32,000 bases of DNA, from the NCBI RefSeq assembly GCF_000179635.2, contig NC_014824.1, forward strand, positions 1 to 32,000. The letters are read 5' to 3'. The notes beneath the pieces are model-generated. The model was not told the DNA's origin. It ran no database searches and was given only the letters and a program-made list of their open reading frames with translations. This document shows positions 10,969 to 31,407 of this stretch, one piece after another. Every line of letters starts with the position of its first letter. Position 1 is the first letter of the stretch. The translations under genes and the position numbers were made by a program. Source of the stretch: Ruminococcus albus 7 = DSM 20455 (lineage in GTDB: Bacteria > Bacillota > Clostridia > Oscillospirales > Ruminococcaceae).

Positions 10969-10973
10969 TTAGA

Positions 10974-10990: not shown

Positions 10991-11030
10991 ATATTTGTAG
11001 AAAAAATAACACACTGAGGAGGTGATACTA

Positions 11031-11522
11031 ATGAAGAAAAAACTTATCATGAGTCTTGTGGCTTTAGCTGCTTGCCTGAGTGCATGCGGGAGTTCCGGCA
11101 AAGAAGCAATACAAAAAGAGCCTTCGAGTTATTATACACAAACAAATTTGTCGGCGCTTGAATACTCAATGTACATAGCAAACAAAATTTCCGTAGCAAC
11201 AGGACAGCTCAATACCCATATGGCAAAGATAAAAAATGTAGCTGATGGTTCTTGCTCGTATGAAGATGAAATAAGCGCCATTGATTCTTCAATCGAGACT
11301 TTAAAAGAAGACAAAGTGGATCTCTCTTATGTTTATCCCCCTGACAGCTACTCAAGAACCAGAGAAGATGCTCTTACATACTGGCAGGATGCTATAGATA
11401 AACTGCAGGAAGTATCCGATGAGTTATCCGATAACGATATCACAAGTGATAGAGCGATCGAATTATCATCCAGACTTTCAGACATCTACACATCCATACA
11501 ATCGCTTAATTTCGTAGTTTGA
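11031..11522 (+). CDS. Lipoprotein, 163 aa
   Basis: Start refined to ATG 11031 (GAGGAGG at 11016-11022). Signal peptide MKKKLIMSLVALAACLSAC with lipobox L-S-A-C. Confidence 0.7.
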   Translation: MKKKLIMSLVALAACLSACGSSGKEAIQKEPSSYYTQTNLSALEYSMYIANKISVATGQLNTHMAKIKNVADGSCSYEDEISAIDSSIETLKEDKVDLSYVYPPDSYSRTREDALTYWQDAIDKLQEVSDELSDNDITSDRAIELSSRLSDIYTSIQSLNFVV

Positions 11523-11592
11523 TACATTACCGAGGATGTAATAACAATCTGCTGTCTCTCGGATATAGACAGTATTTAAATGAGGTGGAAAC

Positions 11593-12426: not shown

Positions 12427-12443
12427 CGAAAGGATGTGCTGAA

Positions 12444-14786: not shown

Positions 14787-14798
14787 TTTTGTCAGATG

Positions 14799-14815
14799 CA
14801 ATTTTCTCATATAAT
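14799..14815 (+). promoter_or_regulatory. Recurrent promoter motif copy P6 (CAATTTTCTCATATAAT)
   Basis: Motif match 26 nt upstream of ATG 14841. No terminator lies upstream, so read-through from the P5 operon is possible. Confidence 0.5.
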
Positions 14816-14840
14816 TAAAATGTGAAAGGAGAATGATTTT

Positions 14841-15020
14841 ATGGCTGATATAATTCATTCATTTATAGCGTTCAATGTTAACGCGTTCAATCATCTTGTA
14901 TATTTACTCTCTCAGAATATCTCTATTATCATTATTCTGATTGCTGCCGTTCTAACGGCTGTTTTATCGCTCAAGGATGTCGTAGTTAAGTCTACCCGTG
15001 ATCAGAGACCAATGATTTAA
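14841..15020 (+). CDS. Small single-TM hydrophobic peptide, 59 aa (missing from the ORF track because it is under 60 aa)
   Basis: ATG 14841 follows AAAGGAGAA (14825-14833). Hand translation: MADIIHSFIAFNVNAFNHLVYLLSQNISIIIILIAAVLTAVLSLKDVVVKSTRDQRPMI, with TAA at 15018-15020. It fills the otherwise empty gap between P6 and the next gene. Confidence 0.5.
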   Translation: MADIIHSFIAFNVNAFNHLVYLLSQNISIIIILIAAVLTAVLSLKDVVVKSTRDQRPMI

Positions 15021-15035
15021 TAAGGAGTGATAAAT

Positions 15036-15554
15036 ATGAAAGGTGTTAATAAAGAAGTATACAAAGAGCCCATGACATCTCAGGAAGCAACTGCTTATAT
15101 AAAAGCCATTGGTTATCCTGTATTGATACTGCTCTTGTCGATGTTTTCTATAAGTGTTTTTTCCGGATTCGGCACAAGACTTATCGCTCCATTGACAGCC
15201 GCAATGTGGGGAGTGGGTGTGATCGGAGCTCTTGTATTAAAATCGATGAGAAAAGAAATCTTAAAAGAAACGCTTGCTTTTATCGGTATTTATCAGACAA
15301 CTCTCCTCGGATGGAGAGAGGCTATAAAGTTAGTATCGAACGTATCCACTGAGCAGATCATGGCATCCTATAATCAAGTGATATCGTTAAACCAGAGTTC
15401 TGCATTGCCCGGATACCTTCAAACGGCACTATGGGCGACAACGATCCTTGTGCCGGCGGGTTTTCTCGGAAGAGAAGCAACGCGAATATATAGGTTTACT
15501 AAAAAAACAGACAAAAACAAAGCTTTGAATCAAGTTCGTGGCATCAGACCATAG
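15036..15554 (+). CDS. Polytopic membrane protein (2-4 TM), 172 aa
   Basis: Start refined to ATG 15036 (AAGGAG at 15022-15027). TM segments: YPVLILLLSMFSISVFSGF, LIAPLTAAMWGVGVIGALVL and LQTALWATTILVPAGFLG. TAG stop. Confidence 0.6.
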   Translation: MKGVNKEVYKEPMTSQEATAYIKAIGYPVLILLLSMFSISVFSGFGTRLIAPLTAAMWGVGVIGALVLKSMRKEILKETLAFIGIYQTTLLGWREAIKLVSNVSTEQIMASYNQVISLNQSSALPGYLQTALWATTILVPAGFLGREATRIYRFTKKTDKNKALNQVRGIRP

Positions 15555-15569
15555 AAAGGAGAATAGGGA

Positions 15570-18500
15570 ATGGCTTTAACAGTATTTGATATCAAAAGAA
15601 TATTACAGCCTAAAATCTCAACTATGCCTTCTGATGATTTCAGGATCATTGATTCTTGGGTAGAAGTCGATGAAAATTCATCCAAATCTGTTCCCAAACG
15701 ACCGATCAAATATCTCTGTTTTAAGATAGAGGTCATTAATCCCGGAAACGGTGAAAAAAACACTATTTATAAAGCACTAAAATTTTACAGAGTTAAAAGA
15801 CTGCCTAAGTCCTCAAAAGAATCAAAAACCTTTATGGATATGCACTCACAGGTTTTGGCAGCTCTTTACGAAAATGAGATCAATTTTGTAACTATAATAG
15901 CAAATATCATGGATCCTCCGTTAGGACTGCTTTTCCTGTACGGTGTTCAGGGCGTTTCAAAAGATCTCGAAGAAGCAAAAATGATAGCGGATACAGATTA
16001 TGTATCTCTCGGTGCAGCGCTGCAGGGAACGTATAAAGTTCTTCATATGTCTCACATAGAACAGCAGGAGACCGAATGGCTGAGACAAAAGATGTTCAAT
16101 ATGGAATACCTGACTGCTGTAAGAGGTATCCCGAAGGCGAATTCTCTTGGTGTTAGTGTTTCAAAAACGACAATGGATAATAAACCCCAGAATCCCGACG
16201 GAACAGGCACACTTGAGGAAATAATTCTCGGTATGTCTGATTATGAGTATGTAATTCAGATTCTTTCAACTCCTGTTAAGATGGATACCTTGACAGCCTG
16301 GAGCATGGCAAACCAGATGAACATGACTGAATGGAATGAACAGCTGCAGGGTACTAAAAGTCTTAATTTTTCGCTTAGTATCCCTATGATGTATATGGCA
16401 AATACATCAAATTCTAAGGGATGGAATCAAGCATATTCTGATTCCTCAACTTTGTCTCACGGTACCGGACAGTCCTTTAATACCGGCTATGGTGAGAACC
16501 TCAGTAATGGTTTGAGCATGAATTATGGTCAGGCTATAGGTCAGTCTTCCGGTCATTCGTTTTCTAATACCATTTCCAACACTGAATCCATATCTCAAAG
16601 TGTAAGTCACGGTCAATCTCTGACTCACAGTGTCGGAGAAAGTCTCGGGCTTTCTCAGGGGCATACACAGGGCCTTACTCAGGGCGTTTCAGAAAATTTT
16701 GGTCATAATACATCCAACAGTCTTAATCACAGTATAAGCAATAATGTGTCCAACAGTTTCGGATTGAGCCAAAATCATGGCTATTCTCACGGAAATTCCG
16801 TAAATATCGGGGAAAGTATCAATCAAAGTGCCGGAATTTCAGAGGGGTATGGTGCTAGTATATCTCAGAATTCCAGTCATTCGCTAAATCACGGTTCGAG
16901 TATCAATAGCTCGATATCTCAATCACAGGGCTTTAGCCAGAGTCAATCATATAATCAATCCCTTGGTCAGTCATCCTCAATGTCCAACTCTATTTCAAGC
17001 GGCAGATCTATGAATTTCGGTCATGGTGAAAGTTGGAACGAAGGTCAGAATTTTTCTCATGGTAATTCTTTGACTTCATCCGAAGGACAGAGCTATGGTC
17101 ATAGTGCAAACTCAGGCAGCAGTTGGAATAATTCGGAAGGATTCTCGGATGGATGGTCGCATGGATCATCCATGAATTCAGGAACATCATCAGGAAGTTC
17201 TGTTAGTTCCGGTTCATCGGAAAACAGCGGTTTATCCAATTCTGTGTCGAATAATGTTTCGCTGGGAATCGGTCCGGTCAACAGCAGTGGCGGCGACGGA
17301 CAGAATTTTTCATCTTCGTCAGGCTACTCTTCCAGCACTTCTGAAAATTTGGGCCACAGCACGGGGTACGGTACAAGTGATTCGAATAATTATGGTCATA
17401 ACAATAGCTTCAGCAATGGTGGTTCTTTCTCCCAGGGCGAAAATTGGGGTGCAAGCAGTTCTTTATCTCAAGGAATGTCCACAAGCGAAGGCTTGAGTTT
17501 CGGTCATGGCGGTTCGATAAATGAATCATATGGCTTTAATTCATCGCAGTCACAGGGTATCACAAACGGTACATCCTTTAGCCAGTCGATTGGTACAGGT
17601 CAATCATTATCCAGTACTCAAGGCATTTCAAACGGATGGGGTCAGAGCTATTCATACGGTGAATCTGCTGGCATGGGCGTTTCTCAGAGTCAGAATCAGG
17701 GATTCTCTCAGAGTTATGGTTCAGGGTCATCCTTTAGTCAGGGTGACAGCCAATCTATATCGGAATCCGTTGGAACGTCTCAAAGCCAGTCTGTCGGCTC
17801 CGGAGAATCGTGGGGTCTTGGTCAGTCGGAAGGTTTTTCCGAAAGTATGGGATATTCAAGATCTGCGTCCGATTCCGTATCTCAGTCTGTTACAAATAGT
17901 ATTTCAAACTCCGATAGCTTCGGAAGATCTATTTCACAGTCTCAGGGTTATTCTCAGGGTATAAGCAGAGGAATGTCTCTCGGAGAAACATCATCACAGT
18001 CATACACACAGAATGTTTCTCAGGGTGCATCAATGAGCACCGGATCCAGTAAATCTGTTTCACAGGGACAGAGTATTTCGGAAAGCAATGGAAGAAGCTT
18101 AGGTCAGTCTATGGGTACTTCAGGTGCTTTTGCGACATCAACCGGCGGATCTATGGGACTCGGCCCTTCGATAAGCTATGGTAAATCTTATCAGTGGCTT
18201 GATCAGCAAGTTAAAGACATTCTGGAAATTCTCAATTATGAGAATGAAAGACTAAAAAATGCTTTAAAAGGTAACGGTGCATTTTACACTGACGTTTATA
18301 TTGCGTGTACGTCACAGGATGCACTTGCAGCAGCAAAAGCTCTCGCCAAGTCATCTTGGCAAAACGACCAGGCACTTAGAATGCCTATTCAAGTTCTTGA
18401 CCTTGAATCAGAAGAACAGAGACATCTGCTTTATCATTTTAGCGCTTTTTCGGCGGATATTACAAGGACTTCGGTGTACGGAGTATCTGAATACAAATAT

Positions 18501-20015
18501 ACTACAGTTTTGCTACCAAGTGAACTTGTAGCATATACTCATCCACCGAGAGCTTCGGAAGGCGGTATTTACAGCGATGTAAATGACGTTCCTAAATTCG
18601 CCGTACCTTCGATGATGCAGGGTGAGATATACATGGGTACGATTCTTTCTGCTGAAAGATGGACTATAAACAACGGGTATAAAACGCCGTTTGATTATAG
18701 AATAGATGAATCTATGCTTATGCACGGTTATTTTACAGGTCAGTCAAGATCCGGTAAAACCGTAGCTGCAATGAGATTCATTGCCGAACTATCAAGAGCG
18801 AGAAGAAAGCAAACAGGAAAGCGTTTTAGAATAGTATGTATGGATCCTAAATCTGATTGGAGATCACTTGCAAGGTTCGTCGAGCCCGAAAGATTCAATT
18901 TCTACAGCCTTGGCAATCCGAATTTCCATCCGATTCATTTTAATCCGTGTAAGATACCATACGGTGTTTTCCCGCAGAAATGGGTAGACGGTCTTATCGA
19001 GATCTTCTGCCGTGCTTACGGGCTCCTTGAAAGAGGTAAACAAATCATGGCTGAAACTATTTTTGCTCTTTACAGAAAAGCAGGAGTTTTTGATGCCTTG
19101 GACGATCCTAATTGGAAGGATGTAGTGCCGGAACTTTCCAAGAAGGTGACTTTCAAGAAGATCTACAAGCATATGGAATCATGCAAGATCGCTCTTGATG
19201 ACTCTAGCAATCCTAAAGGCAGAGCCGGAAACGACACAAGAGACGCTTATTCAAGAATTCTTGAACGTCTGTCATGCTTCGGAAGAGAATATTCGATAGA
19301 ATCGAAACTTTTCGGAGAAGAAGATGGAATGGGAATAGATGATCTGATAGGAGACGATGATATCACAGTTCTTGAATCCTCGGGGCTGGAATCAACTTTC
19401 TCCAACTTCATATTCGGTGTAATAACATCAGGATTCTATCAGTATGGTAAAGCTCAGGAAGGAGGCTATAAAGCTCCTGATCAGTATGAAACAATACTGG
19501 TCATAGAGGAGGCAAATAAAGTCCTTACAGGTAATGATACAGCAGGTACAGGGGGAGGTTCATCGTTGAGCCTCGGCGGACAATCTGAGTTTGAAGAAAT
19601 ACTTGACCAGTCAGCCGGCTATGGTCTGTTTGTAATTGCTATAACACAGAAAATAGCTGACATGCCATCCTCGATCATGGCAAATGCAGGTCTTGTGTTT
19701 GCGGGACGTCTTAAGAGAGTAGAGGATATAAATGTAGTAATCAGAACGATAGCGCGTGAAGAGAAGTTTGAAGATCGTGACATAGTTAAGTGGTTCCCAA
19801 GATCACCTACAGGTTGGTTTATTTGCCAGACATCACGAGGTTATGACTTTTTGGACGCCGAACCCGTTCTTGTTAATATCGCTCCGCTTAACTTTGATCC
19901 GCCTACAAATGATGAGATAGATGAAGTTCTGACACGTAAAAAGATAGATATCATGCTTCGCAACAATGCAAGGAACGATGCACTCGATCATTCTCAGATC
20001 TCGGTTACAGTTTAA
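15570..20015 (+). CDS. Giant HerA/FtsK/VirB4-superfamily (DUF87/AAA_10-like) P-loop ATPase split by a low-complexity domain of about 590 aa, 1481 aa
   Basis: AAAGGAGA RBS. Globular N-terminal region, aa 1-277. Low-complexity region, aa 278-874. In the C-terminal part: Walker A GQSRSGKT (aa 1057-1064), then RIVCMDPKSDW and HPIHFNP, Walker B ILVIEEANK (aa 1309-1317, HerA-type hhhhEEAH/N) and FVIAITQKIADMPSSIMANAG (HerA/FtsK-like sensor region). Confidence 0.8.
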   Translation: MALTVFDIKRILQPKISTMPSDDFRIIDSWVEVDENSSKSVPKRPIKYLCFKIEVINPGNGEKNTIYKALKFYRVKRLPKSSKESKTFMDMHSQVLAALYENEINFVTIIANIMDPPLGLLFLYGVQGVSKDLEEAKMIADTDYVSLGAALQGTYKVLHMSHIEQQETEWLRQKMFNMEYLTAVRGIPKANSLGVSVSKTTMDNKPQNPDGTGTLEEIILGMSDYEYVIQILSTPVKMDTLTAWSMANQMNMTEWNEQLQGTKSLNFSLSIPMMYMANTSNSKGWNQAYSDSSTLSHGTGQSFNTGYGENLSNGLSMNYGQAIGQSSGHSFSNTISNTESISQSVSHGQSLTHSVGESLGLSQGHTQGLTQGVSENFGHNTSNSLNHSISNNVSNSFGLSQNHGYSHGNSVNIGESINQSAGISEGYGASISQNSSHSLNHGSSINSSISQSQGFSQSQSYNQSLGQSSSMSNSISSGRSMNFGHGESWNEGQNFSHGNSLTSSEGQSYGHSANSGSSWNNSEGFSDGWSHGSSMNSGTSSGSSVSSGSSENSGLSNSVSNNVSLGIGPVNSSGGDGQNFSSSSGYSSSTSENLGHSTGYGTSDSNNYGHNNSFSNGGSFSQGENWGASSSLSQGMSTSEGLSFGHGGSINESYGFNSSQSQGITNGTSFSQSIGTGQSLSSTQGISNGWGQSYSYGESAGMGVSQSQNQGFSQSYGSGSSFSQGDSQSISESVGTSQSQSVGSGESWGLGQSEGFSESMGYSRSASDSVSQSVTNSISNSDSFGRSISQSQGYSQGISRGMSLGETSSQSYTQNVSQGASMSTGSSKSVSQGQSISESNGRSLGQSMGTSGAFATSTGGSMGLGPSISYGKSYQWLDQQVKDILEILNYENERLKNALKGNGAFYTDVYIACTSQDALAAAKALAKSSWQNDQALRMPIQVLDLESEEQRHLLYHFSAFSADITRTSVYGVSEYKYTTVLLPSELVAYTHPPRASEGGIYSDVNDVPKFAVPSMMQGEIYMGTILSAERWTINNGYKTPFDYRIDESMLMHGYFTGQSRSGKTVAAMRFIAELSRARRKQTGKRFRIVCMDPKSDWRSLARFVEPERFNFYSLGNPNFHPIHFNPCKIPYGVFPQKWVDGLIEIFCRAYGLLERGKQIMAETIFALYRKAGVFDALDDPNWKDVVPELSKKVTFKKIYKHMESCKIALDDSSNPKGRAGNDTRDAYSRILERLSCFGREYSIESKLFGEEDGMGIDDLIGDDDITVLESSGLESTFSNFIFGVITSGFYQYGKAQEGGYKAPDQYETILVIEEANKVLTGNDTAGTGGGSSLSLGGQSEFEEILDQSAGYGLFVIAITQKIADMPSSIMANAGLVFAGRLKRVEDINVVIRTIAREEKFEDRDIVKWFPRSPTGWFICQTSRGYDFLDAEPVLVNIAPLNFDPPTNDEIDEVLTRKKIDIMLRNNARNDALDHSQISVTV
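16401..18191 (+). repeat. Cryptic 6-nt-periodic coding repeat encoding ([S/G/N/T/A]-X)n, in two arms separated by a one-residue register slip at Gly568-Pro569
   Basis: Hand parse of the translation. From N278 to I567 every first dipeptide position is S, G, N, T or A (about 145 dipeptides). G568-P569-V570 then shift the register by one residue. From N571 to Y874 the rule holds again (about 152 dipeptides). Confidence 0.85.
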
Positions 20016-20033
20016 TCGGATCATACTATATAA

Positions 20034-20079
20034 AAATATCCCGACTAAAGTTCGTCGGGATATTTCTATTTATTTTTTT
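20034..20079 (+). terminator. Rho-independent terminator after the giant ATPase gene
   Basis: A 12-bp stem AAATATCCCGAC / GTCGGGATATTT with an 8-nt loop, followed by a T-rich tail (TTTATTTTTTT). Confidence 0.85.
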
Positions 20080-20088
20080 CAAAATAAA

Positions 20089-20105
20089 AAATTTTCTGCT
20101 ATAAT
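20089..20105 (+). promoter_or_regulatory. Recurrent promoter motif copy P7 (AAATTTTCTGCTATAAT), Tad assembly operon
   Basis: Perfect consensus copy with extended -10 TGCTATAAT, 32 nt upstream of ATG 20137. Confidence 0.6.
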
Positions 20106-20136
20106 ATAATTAGTATAAAAAAAGGAGAGATATACA

Positions 20137-20898
20137 ATGTCAAAATCTCATAAAATTACCATTCTTTTGATCTTGGCGGTCATATCTGCAATAGTTACTG
20201 GTACTTTGATCTATAAGTACTGCAATTCAACCAAAGGCTTTATTTACGTATTTAATGATGATTATAAAGCCGGCGCAAAGATCGAAAAGAGTATGCTTTC
20301 GCCTATGAAGGTTGACGATCAGATAATCAAGACAGGACAAAAGGGAGGTCTTGAAAGCTACTACATAACCGGTGAAAATTACTCTAAGGTCGTAGAACGT
20401 AATGAGTATCTGCTTAACGATGTTGTGAAAAATCAGCCGCTGACACTCGTAGATCTTGCTATGACGAGCGGTTCGAGTATTGAAAGGTCGCTGTCCGGCA
20501 ACGGAATGGCTGTTACTATCCCTATATCCGGAACAGCTGCTGTTACGGACGAATTAAGAGTCGGTTCTGTTGTCAACATTTATTCAAGCGACGCAAGTGG
20601 AACAAAACTCTTGTTTGAAAACATGAGAATAATTGCCAGAAATAATGAAAACTCTGTATCCAAGGTGACATTTGAAACATCACCGGATGATACATTAGAT
20701 CTTATAAATGCAGCAAACAACAAAAAACTTTACTTCTCACTGGTATCACCTGTACTTGATGAAAATGCTCATTCGGGCTATGTGGTAACGGAAGAAGAAA
20801 AGGAAGAATCCATTATTATAAATGATAATGATCCTGATTATACCGAAGATGTTCAGATCCCGGAGGATAATCTTCCTGAGGATACATCATCTAAATAA
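20137..20898 (+). CDS. cpaB: CpaB/RcpC-like Flp pilus assembly protein, 253 aa
   Basis: N-terminal TM (ITILLILAVISAIVTGTLIY). A SAF-like stretch IYVFNDDYKAGAKIEKSMLSPMKV. The segment GMAVTIPISG...LRVGSVVNIYSS resembles the CpaB core. First gene of the Tad operon. Confidence 0.6.
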   Translation: MSKSHKITILLILAVISAIVTGTLIYKYCNSTKGFIYVFNDDYKAGAKIEKSMLSPMKVDDQIIKTGQKGGLESYYITGENYSKVVERNEYLLNDVVKNQPLTLVDLAMTSGSSIERSLSGNGMAVTIPISGTAAVTDELRVGSVVNIYSSDASGTKLLFENMRIIARNNENSVSKVTFETSPDDTLDLINAANNKKLYFSLVSPVLDENAHSGYVVTEEEKEESIIINDNDPDYTEDVQIPEDNLPEDTSSK

Positions 20899-20920
20899 AT
20901 CTTTAACGGAGGGATTTAAT

Positions 20921-22462
20921 TTGAATAAAGTACTGATAGTAGATAACAGAGCAGCTTATTATCAAAACATTAAAACAAGAATCGAAATAAGTGATGAACT
21001 TGAACTCGATGCAGAAATTTTCCTGTATACTGATTACAGCGAATTCCAGGAGCATATTACAAAGAATCACTATGACATGATAGCTGTGGTAAGCGGAGTT
21101 ATAATGTCTGATGATTTTGTGATACCGGCTGAGCAGAAACTCCTTGGATATCTTGAAAGGAAAAATTCCGATAATTCTATTTTTGTTAATAGCGGTATTG
21201 TTGATCTCGGCTATTTCAATGATTCGTTTGAAATGCTTCAAACGCTTGAAAAAATGCAGCCGAACGATGCTGAAATAAAAAATGAAACCAAAAATGAAAC
21301 TCCTGTAACAGCTTTATCAGTAGAAAACACAAACGCAGAAACAACTATAAAGCCTGATGCAGAGGAAGTAAGAGGAATAAGAAGTGAAACAAAAGCAGAA
21401 AATGCGGCTGAAAAAGCTTTTTTCTGTTCGAACTGCGGAATGAAATTACTGCCGGAAACTAGATTCTGTCATATATGCGGAACTCCTGTAGACGATGCTG
21501 ATGCTATGATACGAAATGCGGCTATAGACAGAGATGATCGCACGGATGATATTGAAAAACTTGTAGCTGAAGATCTCAAACTCCAGCGCCATCAATGTAA
21601 AGTGGTATCATCTTATGCTGCTAAAGGCGGTGTTGGCAAGACAACTATTGCCGCAAATCTGGCAGTACTTCTGGCACGTACTACTACAGACAGACGCAAA
21701 ACCAGGGTGTGTATCGTAGATTTCAATATTGATTTTGGAAACATTCGGACTACACTGAATTTCTCGCGTAAGGATGTAACAATGATCGACTGGCTTGCTA
21801 ACATCGATGCAAAAATCGGTGAAGGTATAGACCCAAAGGAAATAAAATATTCAAAGGAAGAGATCGAGTGTTTCCTGCAAAAGAAATCTTTTAAGAAAAC
21901 CTTGAGTAATGACGAAACCGAGATCTATGGTCTTATTGCTCCGCTTATACATAAAGATTCCATGGGCATACCCGAAAAAAGCTTTGAAGTAATGCTGAGA
22001 AATCTAAAAGAAAACGGCGATTTTGATTATATAATCTGTGATACAGGCAACAATACCCGTGATTCGTCTTTTACGGCGCTCGAACTTTCGGATAAAATTC
22101 TGCTTATAGCTACTCAGGACGTTACGACTGTAGATTGCAATGACAGTTTCCTTAAGACCATGGATGAAATATCTGATTTTGATAAAGGAAAAGTTTATCT
22201 GGTTATAAATAACATTATATCTGCAAAAGAAACAGGCGTTTCAGTAAAGGATATAGAAGAGGCAGTGCCGGAATTTCCGTGTATTGGAAGGATCAGAAGA
22301 AATACAAGTGTAACTCTTGCTAATAATAAGGGTATCCCTGCGGCTCTTGACTCGGGTGCTCCGTTTACGAGGGAGCTTTCTGAGATAGTATCAGCCATAA
22401 TCGATGAAGATCTTGAGATCAAGCCGAAGAAAAAAGGTATTTTTTCATTCTTGAGGAAATAA
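20921..22462 (+). CDS. tadZ: TadZ/CpaE-like pilus-localisation ATPase (pseudo-receiver N-domain, inserted zinc ribbon, MinD/ParA-type ATPase), 513 aa
   Basis: Start refined to TTG 20921 (GGAGGG at 20909-20914). The track start at 20822 overlaps cpaB. MNKVLIVDNRAAYY... is receiver-like. Zinc ribbon CSNCGMKLLPETRFCHICG. Deviant Walker A SYAAKGGVGKTTIAANLA. Walker B-like YIICD. Confidence 0.75.
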   Translation: MNKVLIVDNRAAYYQNIKTRIEISDELELDAEIFLYTDYSEFQEHITKNHYDMIAVVSGVIMSDDFVIPAEQKLLGYLERKNSDNSIFVNSGIVDLGYFNDSFEMLQTLEKMQPNDAEIKNETKNETPVTALSVENTNAETTIKPDAEEVRGIRSETKAENAAEKAFFCSNCGMKLLPETRFCHICGTPVDDADAMIRNAAIDRDDRTDDIEKLVAEDLKLQRHQCKVVSSYAAKGGVGKTTIAANLAVLLARTTTDRRKTRVCIVDFNIDFGNIRTTLNFSRKDVTMIDWLANIDAKIGEGIDPKEIKYSKEEIECFLQKKSFKKTLSNDETEIYGLIAPLIHKDSMGIPEKSFEVMLRNLKENGDFDYIICDTGNNTRDSSFTALELSDKILLIATQDVTTVDCNDSFLKTMDEISDFDKGKVYLVINNIISAKETGVSVKDIEEAVPEFPCIGRIRRNTSVTLANNKGIPAALDSGAPFTRELSEIVSAIIDEDLEIKPKKKGIFSFLRK

Positions 22463-22474
22463 GGAGAAGTCAAA

Positions 22475-23800: not shown

Positions 23801-23817
23801 AAGGAAAGAAGGATACA

Positions 23818-24696
23818 ATGTATTACGCTATTTTTTTCGCCGGATTATCTGTTATACTGATATTTCTCGCAGTTATAATAAATGTTAGGGAAAAGAAAAA
23901 TATCATAAATAAAAAAGATGCTGATTTTATTGATATTTTTATAGAAAAGAAAAAACAGTATCTAGCGTCAATTCCCGGTGCAATGTCGATCAAAACATAT
24001 TTGATTTTGATGTTATTTTTCCCTTTGACCGGTTCTGTTGGGGCATGGTTCTTGAGTAAAGAGTTGTGGCTTTCGATCATTATCTTTTTTGTCGGTCTGT
24101 TTATTCCGAAATTTATAGTAAGCTATACTGAAAAAAAGCATAAGAAAAATTTTGAAGAGAGATACGCAAGAGCATTACGTCAATTATCCAGCTCTTTAAG
24201 AGCCGGAATGACGTTACAGCAGGCTGTGGAAGATCTCTGTAAATGTCCGTTTATCCATTATGAGATAAAAAAAGAATTCAGACAGATAAATTCGGATATT
24301 CAGCTTGGATTCTCAATATCAGAAGCTTTTGGACACATGGCGGAAAGGATACCGACCGCTGATGTAAAAGATGTTGTTTCTGCGATCAAGATGCAAAGTT
24401 TGGTAGGCGGATCTGAAGCGGAATCAATAGAGATCATAACAAATAACATAAACTCCAGAATGATGCTTCGCAAAGAAATAAAAACCTTGTTTGCAAGCAC
24501 TAAAATGACAATAATAGGAATGGATATTCTTCCAGCTATTATTATATTATTTCTGTATTACTCTTCCCCAATGTATTTTAGACCTTTGTTTTCAACGCTT
24601 ATAGGGCGTTTGGTCTTTGTACTTGCTATCATCTTAATGGTGATCGGAAGCTACATTGACAGAAAATTCCTAAATCGAGTAAAGGGGGTAGATTAA
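23818..24696 (+). CDS. tadB: TadB-like inner-membrane platform protein (T2SSF domain), 292 aa
   Basis: N-terminal TM, a cytoplasmic T2SSF-like stretch LRQLSSSLRAGMTLQQAVEDL and C-terminal TMs. It follows tadA. Confidence 0.75.
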   Translation: MYYAIFFAGLSVILIFLAVIINVREKKNIINKKDADFIDIFIEKKKQYLASIPGAMSIKTYLILMLFFPLTGSVGAWFLSKELWLSIIIFFVGLFIPKFIVSYTEKKHKKNFEERYARALRQLSSSLRAGMTLQQAVEDLCKCPFIHYEIKKEFRQINSDIQLGFSISEAFGHMAERIPTADVKDVVSAIKMQSLVGGSEAESIEIITNNINSRMMLRKEIKTLFASTKMTIIGMDILPAIIILFLYYSSPMYFRPLFSTLIGRLVFVLAIILMVIGSYIDRKFLNRVKGVD

Positions 24697-25557
24697 ATGG
24701 AGTTTGCTATTGCTCTTTTTACAGGCGTAACTGTTTTTCTTCTTATTTTACTTGTAGCGACGTTTTTATCAACAGAAAATGTAGCGCTCATAAGTAAAGA
24801 AAAACTTACCGTAGAGCACTTATGCAGCAAGATAATAAAGAAGGAACCTGAAGTACTGGCAGATAAGCTGGGGATTCAGACCGATAAGTATATGTTCAAC
24901 TGCAATCTTATCGGAGTTGAGCCTAATCTCGATAAACTGATAATTACGAGAATACTGGCTGTGACCATTGCTGTTCTGGGAATCCTGATAGCTTTTCTTA
25001 TCAATACTCCTCTAATATCTTTGCTTATCGGATTAGCAACAGCTGTAATTACGATATTGGTGTTTATCTCACCAACGGCTACAATTAATGACCGTGCTCA
25101 AAAGAAGAAAGCTCAGTTTGAATCCGAGATACCGCGTTTTTTGGATCTGTTTCAGACAGCAATAAAAATAAATCTACCCGTTGCAACGGCCATTAAAATA
25201 ACAGCCGAAAGTATTGATGGAATCTTATCGGAGGAGCTTTTAAGAGCACTTGTTGTGACAGAGCTTGGAACAAGCAACTGGCAGGATTCTTTGTATGATA
25301 TAGCACAAAAATACGAAGTGGACAGCTTTTCGGATTTTGTTCTTGACATCGTTACTGCTTTTCAAAAAGGTTCGGATATAACCGAATCTGTAGAGAGACA
25401 AAGCAGAAGTATAAAATCATCGACATTACTCAGTGCAAAAGAGCAAGCAGCTAAAACTACAAGCTTGATACTGATACCTGTTGTGGTGTTCAAAATGATA
25501 CCGCTGATGATAATTTTATTTTTACCTGTCATCATGCAAATACTTAATGGGATGTAA
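24697..25557 (+). CDS. tadC: TadC-like inner-membrane platform protein (T2SSF domain), 286 aa
   Basis: The ATG abuts the tadB TAA. Topology is TM - cytoplasmic helical domain (IPRFLDLFQTAIKINLPVATAIKI) - TMs. It is paired with tadB, as in canonical Tad loci. Confidence 0.7.
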   Translation: MEFAIALFTGVTVFLLILLVATFLSTENVALISKEKLTVEHLCSKIIKKEPEVLADKLGIQTDKYMFNCNLIGVEPNLDKLIITRILAVTIAVLGILIAFLINTPLISLLIGLATAVITILVFISPTATINDRAQKKKAQFESEIPRFLDLFQTAIKINLPVATAIKITAESIDGILSEELLRALVVTELGTSNWQDSLYDIAQKYEVDSFSDFVLDIVTAFQKGSDITESVERQSRSIKSSTLLSAKEQAAKTTSLILIPVVVFKMIPLMIILFLPVIMQILNGM

Positions 25558-25574
25558 AAAATTTTTTATTTTCA

Positions 25575-25591
25575 AAATTTTCTGCTATAAT
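25575..25591 (+). promoter_or_regulatory. Recurrent promoter motif copy P8 (AAATTTTCTGCTATAAT), pilin operon
   Basis: Perfect consensus copy 49 nt upstream of the flp ATG. No hairpin terminator lies between tadC and this site. Confidence 0.6.
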
Positions 25592-25639
25592 AAATAGGGA
25601 AACCTTTATAACATATAATTTTCAAAAGGAGAGATTATA

Positions 25640-25900
25640 ATGAAAGATTACGCAAAAAGATTTTTTAACGAAGAAGAAGGAGAGGAAGGTGCTGAATTCC
25701 TCGAATACGCAGTTATTATAGGTCTGTCGGCTATACTTATAGCTGTAATAATTGTTGTAGTTATGGTCGTAAAATACAAGGGTTTAAAATCTGCCAAAAA
25801 AATCGATGAAGCAGGCAATGACTCTACTGCTGTAGATTGGGATGCTGCTCTCGGAGACAAAGACAAGGAAGTAAACGATGCCTTGAAGAATCTGGATTGA
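25640..25900 (+). CDS. flp: Flp-family (type IVc) prepilin, 86 aa
   Basis: AAAGGAGAG RBS. The leader MKDYAKRFFNEEEGEEG is followed by AEFLEYAVIIGLSAILIAVIIVVVMVV, which gives the Flp processing motif G/XXXXEY and then a hydrophobic helix. Confidence 0.75.
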   Translation: MKDYAKRFFNEEEGEEGAEFLEYAVIIGLSAILIAVIIVVVMVVKYKGLKSAKKIDEAGNDSTAVDWDAALGDKDKEVNDALKNLD

Positions 25901-25904
25901 TAAT

Positions 25905-26417
25905 ATGTATATCCTCAGGACTGTAATAGCCGCCGTCATATGTTTGGCGGCGGCTATATTCGATTATAAAACTACAAAGATACCAAATAAATTCATTTTC
26001 CCCGTTATTATATTGAGTTTTATTTTTTCTCTTATTTGCTACCCTTTGATAAATACCGGATTTTCGGTTTTATTTGTCGTACTTCTGTTCTTTTTTGGAA
26101 TGACAGGATGGATGGGTTTGGGAGATATAAAGCTGTTAATGGCTTTGTCTTTAATAGGAACATGGAAGATGGGGTTATTTACATTTGCGCTTTCATCAAT
26201 TTATCTGATGATCTTCGGTTTCTTGGTTTCTCCATATGAAACAGGATTCTATGCAAAAAAAATGCTGAATAGATTCAAATTAAAAAAAGAACCATTATAT
26301 AAAAAATCGACCAAATACAAATTTGCGCCGTTTATAATGCTTGGAGCATTGTCATACTCGATAATTTTTGATCCGGCGGGACCGATTCATTTCGAGGTGT
26401 TCGGAGGATTTTTATGA
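25905..26417 (+). CDS. tadV: Prepilin peptidase, A24 family, TadV/CpaA type (no methyltransferase domain), 170 aa
   Basis: Polytopic membrane protein with the two catalytic Asp contexts FDYKTTKIPN and GLGDIKLLMAL. Confidence 0.8.
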   Translation: MYILRTVIAAVICLAAAIFDYKTTKIPNKFIFPVIILSFIFSLICYPLINTGFSVLFVVLLFFFGMTGWMGLGDIKLLMALSLIGTWKMGLFTFALSSIYLMIFGFLVSPYETGFYAKKMLNRFKLKKEPLYKKSTKYKFAPFIMLGALSYSIIFDPAGPIHFEVFGGFL

Positions 26418-26920
26418 AATTAAAGATAATCAAAAGATTTTTTCGTTCAGGTAACGGAGAACTCCTGGGATTCGTTATTTGTATGCCATTATTCGTCTGG
26501 CTGCTTATGCTGTTAGTTTCGATAGCACAGTTATCTATCACCAAAGAACAGATCACGTATCTGGCATATGCTGCCGGCAGAGCTGCAGTTGTCTCCGAAA
26601 ATGCAAATGACGCGCTTAATAACGCCCAGGCAGTTGTGGATGAGTCATCAAATCTTTCAGGATTCAGCAACGTAAACGTTGATATCCTGTTTAATGGCGA
26701 ACCTATAACGGAAAGCAATATAAATTCGATCTCATGGCAAAAAGGGGAGTATATAGTAGTTAGGCTAACGTATACAACAGATTCCCTTATCAGCGGTGCT
26801 ATTCCTTTCTCTGATGAAGAGATCGATATGAATGGAACAAGAGAAATGCTTATGGTTATGATGATCGAACGCCCTGTTCCTAATGACCCGTATACAAGCG
26901 AATGGACTAATTTATCGTAA
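26414..26920 (+). CDS. tadE: TadE-like pseudopilin, 168 aa
   Basis: ATGA start/stop overlap with tadV, GGAGGA RBS. The N-terminus RSGNGELLGFVICMPLFVWLLMLLV fits the TadE/TadG N-terminal motif. Confidence 0.6.
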   Translation: MKLKIIKRFFRSGNGELLGFVICMPLFVWLLMLLVSIAQLSITKEQITYLAYAAGRAAVVSENANDALNNAQAVVDESSNLSGFSNVNVDILFNGEPITESNINSISWQKGEYIVVRLTYTTDSLISGAIPFSDEEIDMNGTREMLMVMMIERPVPNDPYTSEWTNLS

Positions 26921-26933
26921 CGGAGGTCTTTTT

Positions 26934-28307
26934 ATGAAACTATCTTTCTTTAAAAAAGGTAATGGAGCTTCTATGATAGGAATGGTCATTATTTTTGGAA
27001 CATTTGTTTTTATCATGATCCTTATTGATCATTTTAATCGATTCAATGCTGTAATAGAAACACAGACAAAAACAGATGCTATTGCTGACGCTATGGCTGT
27101 TGCAGCTAATGATGGGAGCGGTGTGCCGAATTTATACAGAATTTCTAAAGTCAGACACCAAATGACTCAGAAATATATAACTGCGGATTATAAATCCGGA
27201 GAACACGGTATAATGACACCTATCGTGACTCCCGGTCTTACAAGTCCTTTTACAAAAATAAAATCCATAAAATTCAATGAAGAATGGGCTCTTGGAAAAG
27301 AGATAGATCCGCTGAACGAAACTGATAAATACCTTGAAAGTCTGGGAGTAAAAAGCAACGATAAAATACTGTATGTTACAGCGGAAGGCGAAACTCCTTT
27401 TATAAATGCTGATTATCATAAAACTGACAGTGAGGATACTTCGTGGGATTACATATATACCCATGCAACGAATGTCACCAGGATGCTTACATCCAATGAT
27501 GCCCTTATGCAGCAAAAGTTTCCGCTTGACGCATATATAAGAGCAAGACCTACGTACATGAACGGCGATGAAAACAAAGATACTTATTGCGAAAATCCAA
27601 CATTTCCATTGCCGACGTCGGATTATCTCAGAGACGTTACTCAGTTTGAAGTAGAACTTTCTAACAGATACAAGGCAAGCCAGAATATATCGGGTGATCC
27701 GCCGTATACCAGAGAAGCGATTTTTATGTGGGATGTAACATGCGCACTCGGATGTGAGATACCGTGCTACTACAATAAATTCACAGGAGAGCCCTGGCAG
27801 GCTGTATCTGAGGGAAATGAACAGAATTATGACGGAGTTATCCTTTCAAATGGAGCTACTTCTGCTGATATGAGTAAAGTTTACGATCAGCCGGAAGGTT
27901 ACTACACGTTTGTAAAAAACTACTTCTTCCATATTCACAGTGCTGTTTTCCCTACAGACGAAGAATATATAGGCTGTGACAAGTACAATAACTGGCGCTT
28001 AACAGCAAGAGACGGTTCTGATGCGGATACATGTAGAAGGATCCAGATTCAGGCTAATCTCGGATATCCAACAATAATGGTATTCACAAACGGTCAAAAC
28101 TGGGTCGTTCTTCCCGAGGCAAGCACCGTTGATGATGATGTGGATTATGAAGTATCTGATGGAAGCAGAGGCGTTTATATTTCAGCAGCTTCAAATGCTA
28201 CCGAAGAAGAAGCTGCTGCAACGAATGTCTTAAAAAAGAATGTAAATGCTGGATACAGAGTACCTAACGGAAATTATCTTGCTATCACATACAAACCGTT
28301 ACAGTAA
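26934..28307 (+). CDS. TadG-like pilus-associated protein with a large Cys-containing extracellular domain, 457 aa
   Basis: Start refined to ATG 26934 (GGAGG at 26922-26926). The N-terminus KKGNGASMIGMVIIFGTFVFIMILID...TDAIADAMAVAA resembles the TadG-like N-terminal domain. The rest was not recognised. Confidence 0.5.
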   Translation: MKLSFFKKGNGASMIGMVIIFGTFVFIMILIDHFNRFNAVIETQTKTDAIADAMAVAANDGSGVPNLYRISKVRHQMTQKYITADYKSGEHGIMTPIVTPGLTSPFTKIKSIKFNEEWALGKEIDPLNETDKYLESLGVKSNDKILYVTAEGETPFINADYHKTDSEDTSWDYIYTHATNVTRMLTSNDALMQQKFPLDAYIRARPTYMNGDENKDTYCENPTFPLPTSDYLRDVTQFEVELSNRYKASQNISGDPPYTREAIFMWDVTCALGCEIPCYYNKFTGEPWQAVSEGNEQNYDGVILSNGATSADMSKVYDQPEGYYTFVKNYFFHIHSAVFPTDEEYIGCDKYNNWRLTARDGSDADTCRRIQIQANLGYPTIMVFTNGQNWVVLPEASTVDDDVDYEVSDGSRGVYISAASNATEEEAAATNVLKKNVNAGYRVPNGNYLAITYKPLQ

Positions 28308-28323
28308 GGAGTTGAAAATTAAG

Positions 28324-30117
28324 ATGATAAAGAAGTTCTCGGCTTCGGTACTTGCACTGATAATCATGTTTCAGTGTTCCGCATCAATTTCCGCCGCGCC
28401 CAAGACTTACCAAAAAGGAGCGAGTCTTACTTTTACGTGGGCGGGATCTGGAGCTCATGGAGGACAGGATTATCACATGGAAGCTGTAGACAATAGCGGT
28501 AATCCGACTATTATCTGTTCCAATAACGATGGAATAGTGAACTACTTCAGCGGCACAAAAAAGTATATAGACTGGAAAAATCTCGGATACGGGATAGACG
28601 ATGATTTTGTTTGTCATCCTCGCACTCCCGATTACGCAAATGAAGATTTTCTGAATGGTTTGGGCAATTTCGGCTATTTCCCGGAGTTTTCTAATTACAG
28701 AGTACCTATAAATGAAGTAAGGAACTCTATGAACGAAATGTACGCTACTTTTGGTGATTACGGTACTGAAATATGCACCGGAATGCCTGATTATGATGCT
28801 TATTATCTTAACGGACAGGCAATGAATATTAATAATCAGGATTTCATGGCTAATCAGTCAAACGGATTTAATCATTCACAACAAGAATGGACAGGCTCAA
28901 AAGCGCGTTTCATGATCGGTGAAAAAGCCTACAATTCTTTAGCAGAAATGTATCTCGATGCCAACGATGAACAGAGAAGAAAGATAGAAGAACTGATAGA
29001 AAAAGGTCTTACTGAATCGGATGTTGCACCTGAAAAAGTGGAAGCTGTGTTGAATTGGCTCAGGACGATAGCAGAACTGGATGCGGAGGGAAGAATTCGT
29101 TATTTTACTCCTGTAAATGCGACATACTTCACTGAAGCCCCTGACGGCCTATCAGGAGAGGAGATACAGCAGAGATTTATTGACTGGTGTAATGCTCATG
29201 CTTACGATTATGAAGCTCTTGGCTGGAATCTTGACGATAGTGCTACATGGCCAATTGGCATTGATATCGACGGCACGATGGTGCTTAATGTCGGTAATAT
29301 AGAGTTTTTCAATAATTCTGTAATTAATCTTACTCCATTTGATTATTTGAGGATATCTGACCGAATAGCGTGGTTTGAAAGTTTGATGGATGTTTTTGAG
29401 ACCGCCGGAGCAGAAACCGTAGATGTCACAAGAGTTTTGGACAGAAAAATAACGACCTTATGGATAGGTACTTCCTCATACGATAAGCTCTATAATATGT
29501 ATACATGGACAATAGAGAAGGCAGATGATGAAGGAGACGGTAAATACACCTTCCAGCCGTATGCGGGAACAATAGGTGCAAACGGTGATGTTGTGGGAGC
29601 AAACGGACAGTCATTTTCCTTCAGGCCCACATCAGAAGGTCATTACAGGATAACCTGTTACAGGAACTACAAGCCTACCATCTGTAATAAAGTCGCCGTT
29701 AATTTCTGTGAATACACGGTTTTATCCGATATAGGCGCTATCGTATTTTTTGATCATGACGGCTTTATGGCAGGAAATGTACAGAGAAATAACTATGATG
29801 GAGAAATCGACAGCGACAAGATAGTGAGTACATCAACTAAGAAGAATCCCGGAGTTGAAACAGTAGATGGAATAAGAAGGAATATAGACTACCAGGAAGA
29901 CTATACAGAAGGTGAGCTCAGAGCTCATGGTGATGTTAATCCTGATTGTGGAATGTTTCCTTCAGACGCAAATTCAAATCAGGCGTATTATCTGAGTCAA
30001 TACTCCTGCGTCTGGAATTTTTATATTTCCGATGCGGAAGTAGGAAAGACTATTTTCGATTTTGAAGACCCGGATAACGGCCTGAGAAAAGATTTTGACA
30101 CTGAAAGACTTGGATAA
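28324..30117 (+). CDS. Secreted protein of unknown function (candidate pilus-associated adhesin), 597 aa
   Basis: Start refined to ATG 28324 (AAGGAG at 28306-28311). Signal peptide MIKKFSASVLALIIMFQCSASISA/AP. Last gene of the pilin operon. No recognisable motif. Confidence 0.55.
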   Translation: MIKKFSASVLALIIMFQCSASISAAPKTYQKGASLTFTWAGSGAHGGQDYHMEAVDNSGNPTIICSNNDGIVNYFSGTKKYIDWKNLGYGIDDDFVCHPRTPDYANEDFLNGLGNFGYFPEFSNYRVPINEVRNSMNEMYATFGDYGTEICTGMPDYDAYYLNGQAMNINNQDFMANQSNGFNHSQQEWTGSKARFMIGEKAYNSLAEMYLDANDEQRRKIEELIEKGLTESDVAPEKVEAVLNWLRTIAELDAEGRIRYFTPVNATYFTEAPDGLSGEEIQQRFIDWCNAHAYDYEALGWNLDDSATWPIGIDIDGTMVLNVGNIEFFNNSVINLTPFDYLRISDRIAWFESLMDVFETAGAETVDVTRVLDRKITTLWIGTSSYDKLYNMYTWTIEKADDEGDGKYTFQPYAGTIGANGDVVGANGQSFSFRPTSEGHYRITCYRNYKPTICNKVAVNFCEYTVLSDIGAIVFFDHDGFMAGNVQRNNYDGEIDSDKIVSTSTKKNPGVETVDGIRRNIDYQEDYTEGELRAHGDVNPDCGMFPSDANSNQAYYLSQYSCVWNFYISDAEVGKTIFDFEDPDNGLRKDFDTERLG

Positions 30118-30144
30118 TAAAAGTATAAAGATTTAGGCATAAGT

Positions 30145-30180
30145 AAAGGACTGCTGCAATTTTTTGCAACAGTCCTTTTA
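30145..30180. terminator. Bidirectional rho-independent terminator between convergent genes
   Basis: Stem AAAGGACTGCTGCA / TGCAACAGTCCTTT (one mismatch) with a T-rich loop. T-runs lie downstream on + and, more weakly, on -. Confidence 0.75.
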
Positions 30181-31180: not shown

Positions 31181-31197
31181 ATTATAGCAGATTATTT
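31181..31197 (-). promoter_or_regulatory. Degenerate copy of the promoter motif on the minus strand (AAATAATCTGCTATAAT)
   Basis: The reverse complement of 31181-31197 carries the extended -10 TGCTATAAT. It lies about 90 nt upstream of the minus-strand lipoprotein start. Confidence 0.45.
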
Positions 31198-31390: not shown

Positions 31391-31407
31391 CAGTTTTCTT
31401 CTATAAT
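31391..31407 (+). promoter_or_regulatory. Recurrent promoter motif copy P9 (CAGTTTTCTTCTATAAT)
   Basis: Motif match. The -10 end is 40 nt from ATG 31447. Confidence 0.5.

Follow-up and report, generated by a model that had tools for sequence, protein, structure and literature searches.

The DNA analysed here is a stretch of 32,000 nucleotides from Ruminococcus albus 7 (contig NC_014824.1, positions 1 to 32,000), hereafter called the window, which is part of the megaplasmid of this organism. With one exception, its large genes are on the + strand. Near its middle, an operon of three genes, namely tm59, TM175, and the gene for a giant ATPase of 1,481 residues, stands next to a Tad pilus locus of the monoderm type. 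The best explanation of this region is that it encodes one conserved supra-operonic system, in which a monoderm Tad/Flp (type IVc) locus is joined to a dedicated accessory module. As judged from sequence, the core of the module consists of a small membrane protein, TM175, and the giant three-part ATPase, and genes for SSB, a protein with one transmembrane segment, and a nuclease often precede it. The features of the module and of the Tad locus are as follows.

11593-12426, + strand: SSB (Pfam SSB, 3.1e-9)
12444-13277, + strand: h277, single-pass membrane protein with one hydrophobic segment (residues 85-103)
13278-14786, + strand: h502, protein with a coiled coil, a winged helix, and a PD-(D/E)xK nuclease domain
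14800-14815, + strand: promoter-like 16-mer AATTTTCTCATATAAT, ahead of tm59 and the ATPase operon
14841-15020, + strand: tm59, small single-pass membrane protein (open reading frame with a transmembrane segment)
15027-15554, + strand: TM175, polytopic four-helix membrane protein (probable start ATG 15036)
15570-20015, + strand: giant ATPase, 1,481 residues
15570-16424, + strand: N-terminal domain of the giant ATPase, residues 1-285
16425-18197, + strand: alternating (S/G/N/T/A-X) linker of the giant ATPase, residues 286-876
18198-20015, + strand: C-terminal HerA-clade P-loop domain of the giant ATPase, residues 877-1481
18738-18761, + strand: Walker A motif, GQSRSGKT
19494-19517, + strand: Walker B motif, ILVIEEAN
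20034-20065, with a T-run to about 20079, + strand: intrinsic-terminator-like hairpin with a 12-bp stem, closing the ATPase operon
20090-20105, + strand: promoter-like 16-mer AATTTTCTGCTATAAT, exact consensus, about 10 nt past the T-run and ahead of cpaB
20137-30117, + strand: Tad locus
20137-20898, + strand: CpaB/RcpC-like protein (TIGR03177 4.5e-7 and RcpC 0.0019, both below curated cut-offs)
20822-22462 (open reading frame; probable TTG start at 20921), + strand: TadZ-like ParA/MinD ATPase with a zinc ribbon
22475-23800, + strand: CpaF/TadA secretion ATPase (T2SSE, PF00437, 8.2e-51, 173 bits against a cut-off of 24.9)
23818-24696, + strand: TadB platform protein (T2SSF, PF00482, 1.9e-15, 57.4 bits against a cut-off of 25.2)
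24697-25557, + strand: TadC platform protein (T2SSF, PF00482, 5.8e-12, 46.1 bits against a cut-off of 25.2)
25576-25591, + strand: second exact copy of the 16-mer AATTTTCTGCTATAAT, ahead of flp
25640-25900, + strand: Flp-type prepilin (processing motif read from the translation; no Pfam match)
25905-26417, + strand: TadV prepilin peptidase (Peptidase_A24 2.8e-12, 47.4 bits)
26414-26920, + strand: TadE-like pseudopilin (TadE 0.0033, weak and below cut-off; kept in relatives)
26883-28307, + strand: 474-residue protein of the pilin operon with an N-terminal transmembrane segment (no family match)
28246-30117, + strand: 623-residue protein of the pilin operon with a signal-peptide-like N terminus (no family match)

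The giant ATPase and its neighbours

The giant protein is composed of an N-terminal domain, a long linker, and a C-terminal motor domain. The C-terminal domain was modelled by AlphaFold with 23 homologues, giving a predicted local distance difference test (pLDDT) score of 75 overall and of more than 90 over most of the P-loop core; the region ahead of the P-loop, in the position of the HAS barrel, was modelled with low confidence. Residues of the Walker A and Walker B motifs are invariant across the family in two family alignments. In a Foldseek search of the Protein Data Bank (PDB), the model was most similar to DndH-C (E 5e-15, probability 1.0, TM-score 0.76 on the target), followed by HerA of Sir2-HerA, DUF4297-HerA, and Sulfolobus HerA (about 1e-12), and TdpA was also found, while VirB4 (4ag6) was matched with E 1e-10 and a TM-score of 0.69 on the target. 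By sequence, FtsK_SpoIIIE was marginal (13 of 23 relatives, best 3e-4), and the Pfam DUF87/HerA family scored 12.6 bits, under its cut-off of 23.2, with weak matches in 9 of 23 relatives (best E 0.001). The VirB4, TraC, and CagE families did not match the N- or C-terminal domains of 23 relatives each at E values up to 1 or 10. The modelled fold places the giant ATPase in the FtsK-HerA superfamily, and its C-terminal domain resembles the HerA clade more closely than it does VirB4, in sequence as well as in fold. The original prediction had called this protein HerA/VirB4-like; the HerA-type fold was borne out, and VirB4 enters only at the level of the superfamily, with no match to the VirB4 families of Pfam.

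Conservation of the N-terminal domain extends to 43 database proteins and to almost every full-length representative of the family, and the domain matched no Pfam family in 23 relatives, even at loose E thresholds. Its AlphaFold 2 model was weak (pLDDT 56), and the best Foldseek matches of this pLDDT-56 model were chains h and V of the inner-membrane complex of the R388 type IV secretion system (T4SS; 8rtd, E 0.04-0.09). The possible likeness of the domain to a chain of that complex may serve as a lead only.

Between the two domains lie about 285 dipeptides in two perfect blocks of about 135 and 150, separated by one register slip. One parity is composed entirely (100%) of small residues to about residue 555, and the other parity, likewise 100% small, takes over to about residue 870; the slip coincides with the only stretch that contains proline. 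The autocorrelation of the linker was +0.57 at lag 2 and +0.56 at lag 40 (standard deviation of shuffles 0.04). The linker has two prolines and 6% charged residues, carries the annotation of serine-rich low complexity, and showed no sign of a recent DNA repeat. The alternation is a property of the whole family, with a median lag-2 and lag-20 autocorrelation of 0.37 over 86 proteins, and several relatives have 97-100% small residues in one parity across 350-700 residues. This pattern suggests an extended beta/silk-like stalk, or one similar to those of serine-rich repeat (SRR) adhesins, rather than a disordered spacer. In Gram-positive bacteria, SRR adhesins carry long Ser-X dipeptide arrays, to which the (S/G/N/T/A-X) array of the giant protein is alike. 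Unlike these adhesins, however, the giant protein has no signal-peptide-like N terminus, ends in an ATPase instead of a cell-wall sorting signal, and holds its array between two cytoplasmic-type domains.

The family is already named in databases. The NCBIfam entry NF033849, "serine-rich protein" (ser_rich_anae_1), matched the C-terminal piece with 944 bits (cut-off 650) and the N-terminal piece with 354.8 bits, and the exact match to the protein (ADU23756) is named "serine-rich protein [Ruminococcus albus]", a name that implies no function. No transmembrane segment and no signal-peptide-like N-terminal hydrophobic segment was found in the giant protein. A HMMER search of 1.84 billion cluster representatives with a profile of the C-terminal domain retrieved 2,166 proteins at E <= 0.001, which are representatives at 50% clustering, and 225 at E <= 1e-30. 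Of the full-length members, which have 1,000-1,800 residues, nearly all combine the N-terminal domain with a linker 100-700 residues long and the motor at the C terminus.

TM175 clusters by BLAST with a 227-residue gene product of distant loci (described below), the gene for which lies ahead of the giant gene. Its family alignment has seven invariant residues (P55, W61, G64, Y89, S107, P143, and G145), and a sequence search of the PDB returned nothing meaningful. As judged from sequence, TM175 is a near-universal partner of the giant ATPase. Homologues of tm59 were found in the related loci L004, L005, and L006.

The genes for SSB, the one-helix protein h277, and the nuclease h502 form a trio, of which the first gene, that for SSB, lies outside the positions covered by the original prediction. 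The SSB has an N-terminal extension of 147 residues and two CxxC pairs that flank its OB fold; the equivalent protein of locus L014 has 590 residues and two matches to the SSB of the window. In h502, the residues P387, D388, E403, E405, and K417 do not vary among the 19 members of the close and distant sets, and a profile search of the PDB matched 8gy8 (E 5.7e-5) over the PD..E.K core. A relaxase assignment of h502 by Replic_Relax was dropped as too weak (E 0.14, 2 of 8 relatives).

The Tad gene set, as read from Pfam and NCBIfam matches and from motifs, is complete for a monoderm bacterium (CpaB, TadZ, CpaF, TadB, TadC, Flp, TadV, and a weakly matched TadE-like protein), which agrees with the original prediction of a complete Tad locus beside the ATPase. 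CpaB aligned with the SAF/RcpC-positive gene of distant loci at an hhalign probability of 97%. TadZ matched AAA_31 (4.5e-11) with 43.4 bits and CbiA with 37 bits, scores that exceed the cut-offs, as well as Zn_Ribbon_1. The longest reading frame of tadZ starts at ATG 20822 and overlaps cpaB by 77 nt; a start at TTG 20921, which follows GGAGGG and was reassigned by the spacing of the ribosome-binding site (RBS), is more likely and gives the N terminus MNKVLIVDN, which is typical for a receiver-like domain. The exact database match to CpaF (ADU23759) carries the name "CpaF family protein [Ruminococcus albus]". Flp has the processing site EEG-AEFLEYAVIIG, of the G/xxxxEY type, with a hydrophobic helix next to it and homologues in loci L003-L005. 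In the pilin operon, flp, tadV, and the tadE-like gene are in place as predicted, while the 474-residue protein that had been called TadG-like has no family match. The core genes are like those of the monoderm Tad/Flp (type IVc) systems of Bifidobacterium breve and Micrococcus luteus. As in those systems, no secretin is encoded, which is expected because there is no outer membrane.

Conservation in close and distant relatives

Seven gut and rumen Clostridial loci (L002, L004-L006, L008, L014, and L015), with C-terminal domains about 66% identical to that of the window, share its gene order: h166, SSB, h277, h502, (tm59), TM175, and the giant ATPase, then CpaB, TadZ, CpaF, TadB, TadC, (Flp), TadV, and TadE. 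Locus L003, the sequence of which begins within the giant gene, retains the Tad half. In all Clostridial loci, the trio stands immediately upstream. At 47% identity, the 435-kb plasmid pB6464 of Alkaliphilus sp. B6464 shows most of the same order: SSB, a hypothetical protein, h502, two small genes, and the "serine-rich protein" are followed by a hypothetical protein, an AAA ATPase, CpaF, two T2SS-F proteins, Flp, an A24 peptidase, and TadE/G. MOB-suite types pB6464 as non-mobilizable, which means that no recognised relaxase or T4SS is carried by the closest complete replicon. A tblastn search of plasmids with the ATPase found two plasmids only, and plasmid searches with the distant subfamily returned the same Alkaliphilus and Pontibacillus plasmids with one weak match in Acinetobacter. 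A protein search with the distant C-terminal domain profile returned mostly generic HerA proteins.

This distant subfamily, the C-terminal domains of which are about 22-25% identical to that of the window, was collected by scanning its alignment over metagenome contigs, and 452 relatives were found. Counts were made from 80 of the 452, which come from sludge, sediment, and peat, have a GC content of 43-73%, and lie on contigs of 0.2-3.0 Mb. In 32 of the 35 loci with at least 4.5 kb of flank, a same-strand CpaF gene followed the giant gene at a distance of 2.3-4.0 kb, and a member of the TM175 family was detected upstream by a hidden Markov model in 47 of the 48 loci with at least 1.5 kb upstream. 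Equivalents of CpaB (SAF/RcpC) and TadZ (AAA_31) lie between the giant gene and CpaF, and TadB, TadC, TadE, and TadG come next after it; the CpaB, TadZ, and TadB equivalents were identified by hhalign (probability 97-99%) and Pfam. Two further upstream families of secreted or anchored proteins recurred, c3_430 in 37 and c6_186 in 35 of 42 loci; these two and the family c10_133 have no detectable counterparts in the window's family. On these sequence comparisons, one class of Tad loci carries an ancient addition, the closely linked giant ATPase and TM175, which is present on both chromosomes and plasmids, since CpaF and TM175 accompany the ATPase so regularly and CpaB and TadZ stand between it and CpaF. 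The pairing of ATPase and Tad locus, for which co-conservation had been proposed as a check, thus recurs in nine Clostridial loci, on pB6464, and in the distant subfamily. The predicted tie of the module to a self-replicating element, however, is not general, because distant members were found on contigs of 0.2-3.0 Mb.

The trio is less constant in the distant loci. It was present within 10 kb in 12 of 48, and in 9-10 of the 27 loci with at least 9 kb upstream. Where it occurs, the h502-family gene lies a few kb upstream of the core and is always preceded by SSB and a one-helix protein. The positional SSB homologue, c22, aligned with the SSB family of the window at an hhalign probability of 96% and matched Pfam SSB (3.8e-8). 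The one-helix protein h277 is kept in the Clostridial loci, and its place in the distant loci is held by a protein with one transmembrane segment, c26, which has no detectable homology to h277.

Coupling to Tad is also supported by the condition of other copies. Away from Tad genes, only decayed copies were seen, one frameshifted (L010) and one reduced to a remnant (L009), and the copy in L013 is split by IS605-type insertions. In L013 (10001-17542), there are two such insertions, of the OrfB/TnpB type, and Tad genes follow downstream. The L010 copy (1-19290) lies between genes for Sortase, FctA, SpaA, and a signal peptidase on one side and SecY, SecG, and an integrase on the other, with no Tad genes, a setting that resembles the surface/Sec module of the "Hodor" megaplasmids (PMC12934698). 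The L009 remnant (10001-10579), on the chromosome of Blautia producta DSM 2950, encodes 196 residues of the C-terminal ATPase domain at 63% identity and has no partner genes within 10 kb.

Several loci carry additional genes. L014 (5770-11611) and L015 (1642-11611) have an extra ATPase-domain paralogue of 536 residues, without the N-terminal domain and linker, between the giant gene and cpaB, and in L015 the complete giant gene is also duplicated in tandem. Cell-wall hydrolases are usual in Gram-positive conjugation loci. An Amidase_5/NlpC-P60 hydrolase gene follows the pilin-processing genes in these two relatives only (L014, 18817-19680; L015, 18829-19692), and none was detected in the window. 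Among distant loci, toxin-antitoxin genes (AbiEii/AbiEi, PIN) lie between the trio and the core cassette in L059 (4195-5825) and L062 (3693-4127), and a heavy-metal P-type ATPase with a LuxR-type response regulator, found in L039 (17980-21529), recurs near distant loci. The gene neighbourhoods hint that chromosomal copies may sit in genomic islands.

Operon signals and the remainder of the window

The remaining genes and promoter-like sites of the window are as follows.

73-4445, + strand: two RecD2-type helicases
4414-5868: membrane protein with a TSP3 repeat
5959-6768: DnaG-type zinc-ribbon protein
6851-10915: DnaE
11022-11522: lipoprotein-like h166
18-33, 4505-4520, 5919-5934, 6817-6832, 10975-10990, 14800-14815, 20090-20105, 25576-25591, and 31392-31407, + strand: 16-mer sites
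31181-31196, - strand: 16-mer site

The two helicases are full-length RecD2/YrrC-type paralogues in tandem with a 19-nt overlap, and the second has a weak match to the TraI helicase-associated single-stranded DNA-binding domain (6.7e-4). RecD2 has an exact database match (ADU23745). A nucleotide search of the window against plasmid and phage collections gave no match. Identity of the element with the Hodor megaplasmids was considered and dropped: those carry Rep_3, VirB4/VirD4, and sortase/Sec genes, and neither Tad nor DnaE is mentioned in the paper (PMC12934698).

The boundary between the two operons was found as it had been described: the hairpin and T-run at 20034-20079 close the ATPase operon, the hairpin at 20034-20065 being the top-ranked site of a terminator scan, and about 10 nt further on, the Tad assembly operon starts with the same promoter motif. 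A shared promoter had been taken as a sign that the two modules are coupled, a view that did not hold, as the 16-mer precedes practically every operon in the window. With up to three mismatches, AATTTTCTGCTATAAT was found 13 times against 1.3 expected, and none of 100 shuffles reached 13. Ten of the 13 sites lie 20-45 nt upstream of an RBS and start codon, which covers essentially every transcription unit, including those of recD2, the dnaG-like gene, dnaE, and a divergent lipoprotein gene. The consensus is A(A/G)TTT(T/C)CnnnTATAAT, usually preceded by a T-rich tract, with no clear -35 element. From its sequence and placement, the 16-mer looks like a replicon-wide promoter type, and since it is element-wide, it says nothing specific about co-regulation or coupling of the ATPase and Tad operons. 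It was not found in related loci and hence cannot be used as a comparative marker. The related plasmid of Alkaliphilus (L016) encodes two sigma-70-family factors.

Candidate functions and significance

A pilus-coupled DNA-handling machine, with a role in DNA transfer or uptake, is in our estimate quite possible, at somewhat short of an even chance. In such a machine, the Tad pilus would contact another cell or DNA, the nuclease would cut or resect DNA, SSB would coat the single strand, and a ring of the HerA type, held at the membrane through its N-terminal domain and TM175, would pump DNA across the membrane. DNA could move outward, as in conjugation and as the original prediction proposed, or inward, as in Ced or competence systems. 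We infer from the combination of genes that the substrate may be DNA, that the N-terminal domain may dock on TM175, and that pilus and motor may act together. The fold of the C-terminal domain, nearest to the DNA translocases DndH-C, HerA, and TdpA, supports the link to DNA, as do the invariant Walker and nuclease residues, and the neighbourhood of SSB and nuclease genes, which is correlative, is the strongest new argument for DNA handling. Natural transformation of Micrococcus luteus needs Flp pilus biogenesis genes (PMC4322843), which gives a precedent for a part of Tad pili in DNA traffic.

The nearest functional analogues appear to be the Ups and Ced systems of Sulfolobales and transjugation by TdtA. 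In Ced, small and polytopic membrane proteins work with the ATPase in DNA translocation, and Ced builds its own VirB2-like pilus. Ups and Ced together are alike in logic to the present system, as a contact pilus is combined with a separate HerA/VirB4-type ATPase that has membrane proteins, although the likeness is architectural only (PMC9905601). Ups and Ced are encoded apart, whereas the modules of the window are contiguous, and CedB is without the N-terminal domain and alternating linker of the giant ATPase. In Thermus thermophilus, the FtsK/HerA-type hexameric ATPase TdtA, encoded on the mobile element ICETh1, exports DNA without a canonical T4SS, and the partner cell uses a competence machine based on type IV pili (PMC5365140, PMC7767461). 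TdtA, unlike the giant ATPase, has no long-linker fusion and is not encoded with pilus genes. Pili encoded by plasmids are also known from the IncI plasmids R64 and TP114, where type IV pili promote mating-pair formation (PMC9045228). The thin pili of IncI plasmids are of type IVb, with DNA passing through a separate canonical T4SS, in contrast to the Tad pilus of the window.

Comparison with T4SS ATPases shows that the C-terminal domain and VirB4 have similar folds, although HerA-clade structures outscore VirB4, and that CpaF belongs to the VirB11/PilT-type ATPase class. VirB3 precedes VirB4 much as small membrane proteins precede the giant ATPase. No match to VirB4, VirD4, VirB6, VirB8, or relaxase families was found among the proteins of the 32-kb window. 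The HerA-nuclease pairs (HerA-NurA, Sir2-HerA, DUF4297-HerA, DndFGH, and TdpAB) provide the best structural matches of the C-terminal domain and share a nearby nuclease, but they are without the membrane partner, Tad linkage, N-terminal domain, and linker, all of which the giant-ATPase module has. The nuclease is of the PD-(D/E)xK type with a winged helix-turn-helix, compared with NurA, Sir2, or DUF4297 in the known pairs, and the NurA family had no match among the window proteins. In the open-access papers and preprints searched, no Tad system with a giant HerA-clade ATPase, TM175, or the SSB/nuclease trio is described, and no paper links the ATPase family to Tad, so that the arrangement appears to be undescribed, as had been supposed; the R. 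albus 7 transcriptome paper does not discuss the locus.

Several points weigh against DNA handling by this system. SSB and nuclease genes lie within 10 kb in only about one-quarter to one-third of distant loci, so that the pair may be accessory, or may be carried along by mobile islands. No transmembrane segment was found in the giant protein, and no channel protein was identified; the match of its N-terminal domain to VirB4 is not significant (E 0.04, low-confidence model); and the alternating linker is without counterpart in any known DNA translocase. A relaxase, an oriT, and a coupling protein were not found in the window. Within the FtsK-HerA superfamily, there are also relatives that move proteins (EssC/EccC) and others that extract pilins (VirB4). 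This handling of proteins by EssC and VirB4 favours the main alternative, a somewhat unlikely one, in which the module is an accessory of this Tad class that does not act on DNA and has SSB and nuclease genes as mere neighbours. It could be a second motor or scaffold for pilins, an exporter of protein cargo, an anchor of the basal body in the thick monoderm wall, or a regulator of CpaF, all of which are possible. Such a role would fit the pattern of linkage, which is tightest for TM175 (47/48) and CpaF (32/35) and looser for SSB and nuclease (12/48), the signal-peptide or membrane-anchor N termini of c3_430 and c6_186, which suggest work at the envelope, and the sole fold lead for the N-terminal domain, a chain of the T4SS inner-membrane complex. 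On the other side stand the closest folds, which are DNA translocases, and the Clostridial family, in which the trio is always directly upstream; moreover, CpaF is described as the only motor needed by well-studied Tad systems (PMC6920026).

An independent system of HerA and nuclease, serving anti-phage defence or end resection in the manner of Sir2-HerA, DUF4297-HerA, or HerA-NurA and hitch-hiking by Tad genes on mobile islands, seems improbable. Defence HerAs and DndH are among the top fold matches, a PD-(D/E)xK partner is present, toxin-antitoxin modules (AbiE, PIN) occur inside distant loci, and PADLOC gave weak matches to mad8, DndH, and HerA (1e-5 to 1e-4). None of the PADLOC matches was convincing, however, and there was none for h502, TM175, or the N-terminal domain. 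The same-strand spacing to CpaF, which stays constant at 2.3-4.0 kb in genomes with a GC content of 43-73%, the obligatory polytopic membrane partner, and the membrane-protein genes that separate nuclease from ATPase also argue against such a system. Maintenance of the megaplasmid, with the ATPase as a DNA pump for segregation or at the sporulation septum and grouped with replication genes, is very improbable: in the window and on pB6464 the ATPase gene is downstream of genes for DnaE, a primase-like protein, and SSB, and one promoter motif is common to all these operons, but distant members, on contigs of 0.2-3 Mb, are linked to Tad and have no match to DnaE in their neighbourhood, and the giant protein is without a membrane anchor of the FtsK/SpoIIIE type. 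We give hardly any weight to a virion-forming phage in which these genes serve packaging or adsorption. Although the FtsK-HerA fold is common to packaging ATPases and the C-terminal domain has weak PHROG matches to an unknown family (4e-4) and to a large terminase (3e-3), no nucleotide or protein match was found among 50,697 phage records and no relative in IMG/VR, the proteins that were compared with PHROGs matched no structural-protein family, and the exact protein matches are on a Ruminococcus albus record of 420,706 bp.

What is new here is a Tad locus with a conserved second motor module of the HerA type, and DNA transfer by it, if shown, would be categorically new. The broader proposal that pilus-coupled DNA handling represents a widespread, unrecognised class of DNA-transfer apparatus, with a Tad pilus hard-wired to a giant HerA-type translocase, a silk-like stalk, a membrane partner, SSB, and a nuclease, is tentative and on balance doubtful; if true, it would be a bacterial counterpart of the archaeal division of labour between Ups and Ced, and such an apparatus could mobilise megaplasmids and islands to which present tools give the label "non-mobilizable". 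If the module moves DNA, it would provide a route of conjugation or uptake that is invisible to typing by mobility (MOB) and mating-pair formation (MPF) genes, and would matter for the way in which large "non-mobilizable" replicons and islands spread among bacteria of the gut, the rumen, and the environment. If no DNA is moved, the system would be a common two-motor variant of the Tad pilus, which is usually described as a one-motor machine, and would present an undescribed architecture in which hundreds of alternating small-residue dipeptides separate a docking domain from a ring ATPase. In both cases, the named and uncharacterised NCBI family NF033849 gains a precise genomic context.

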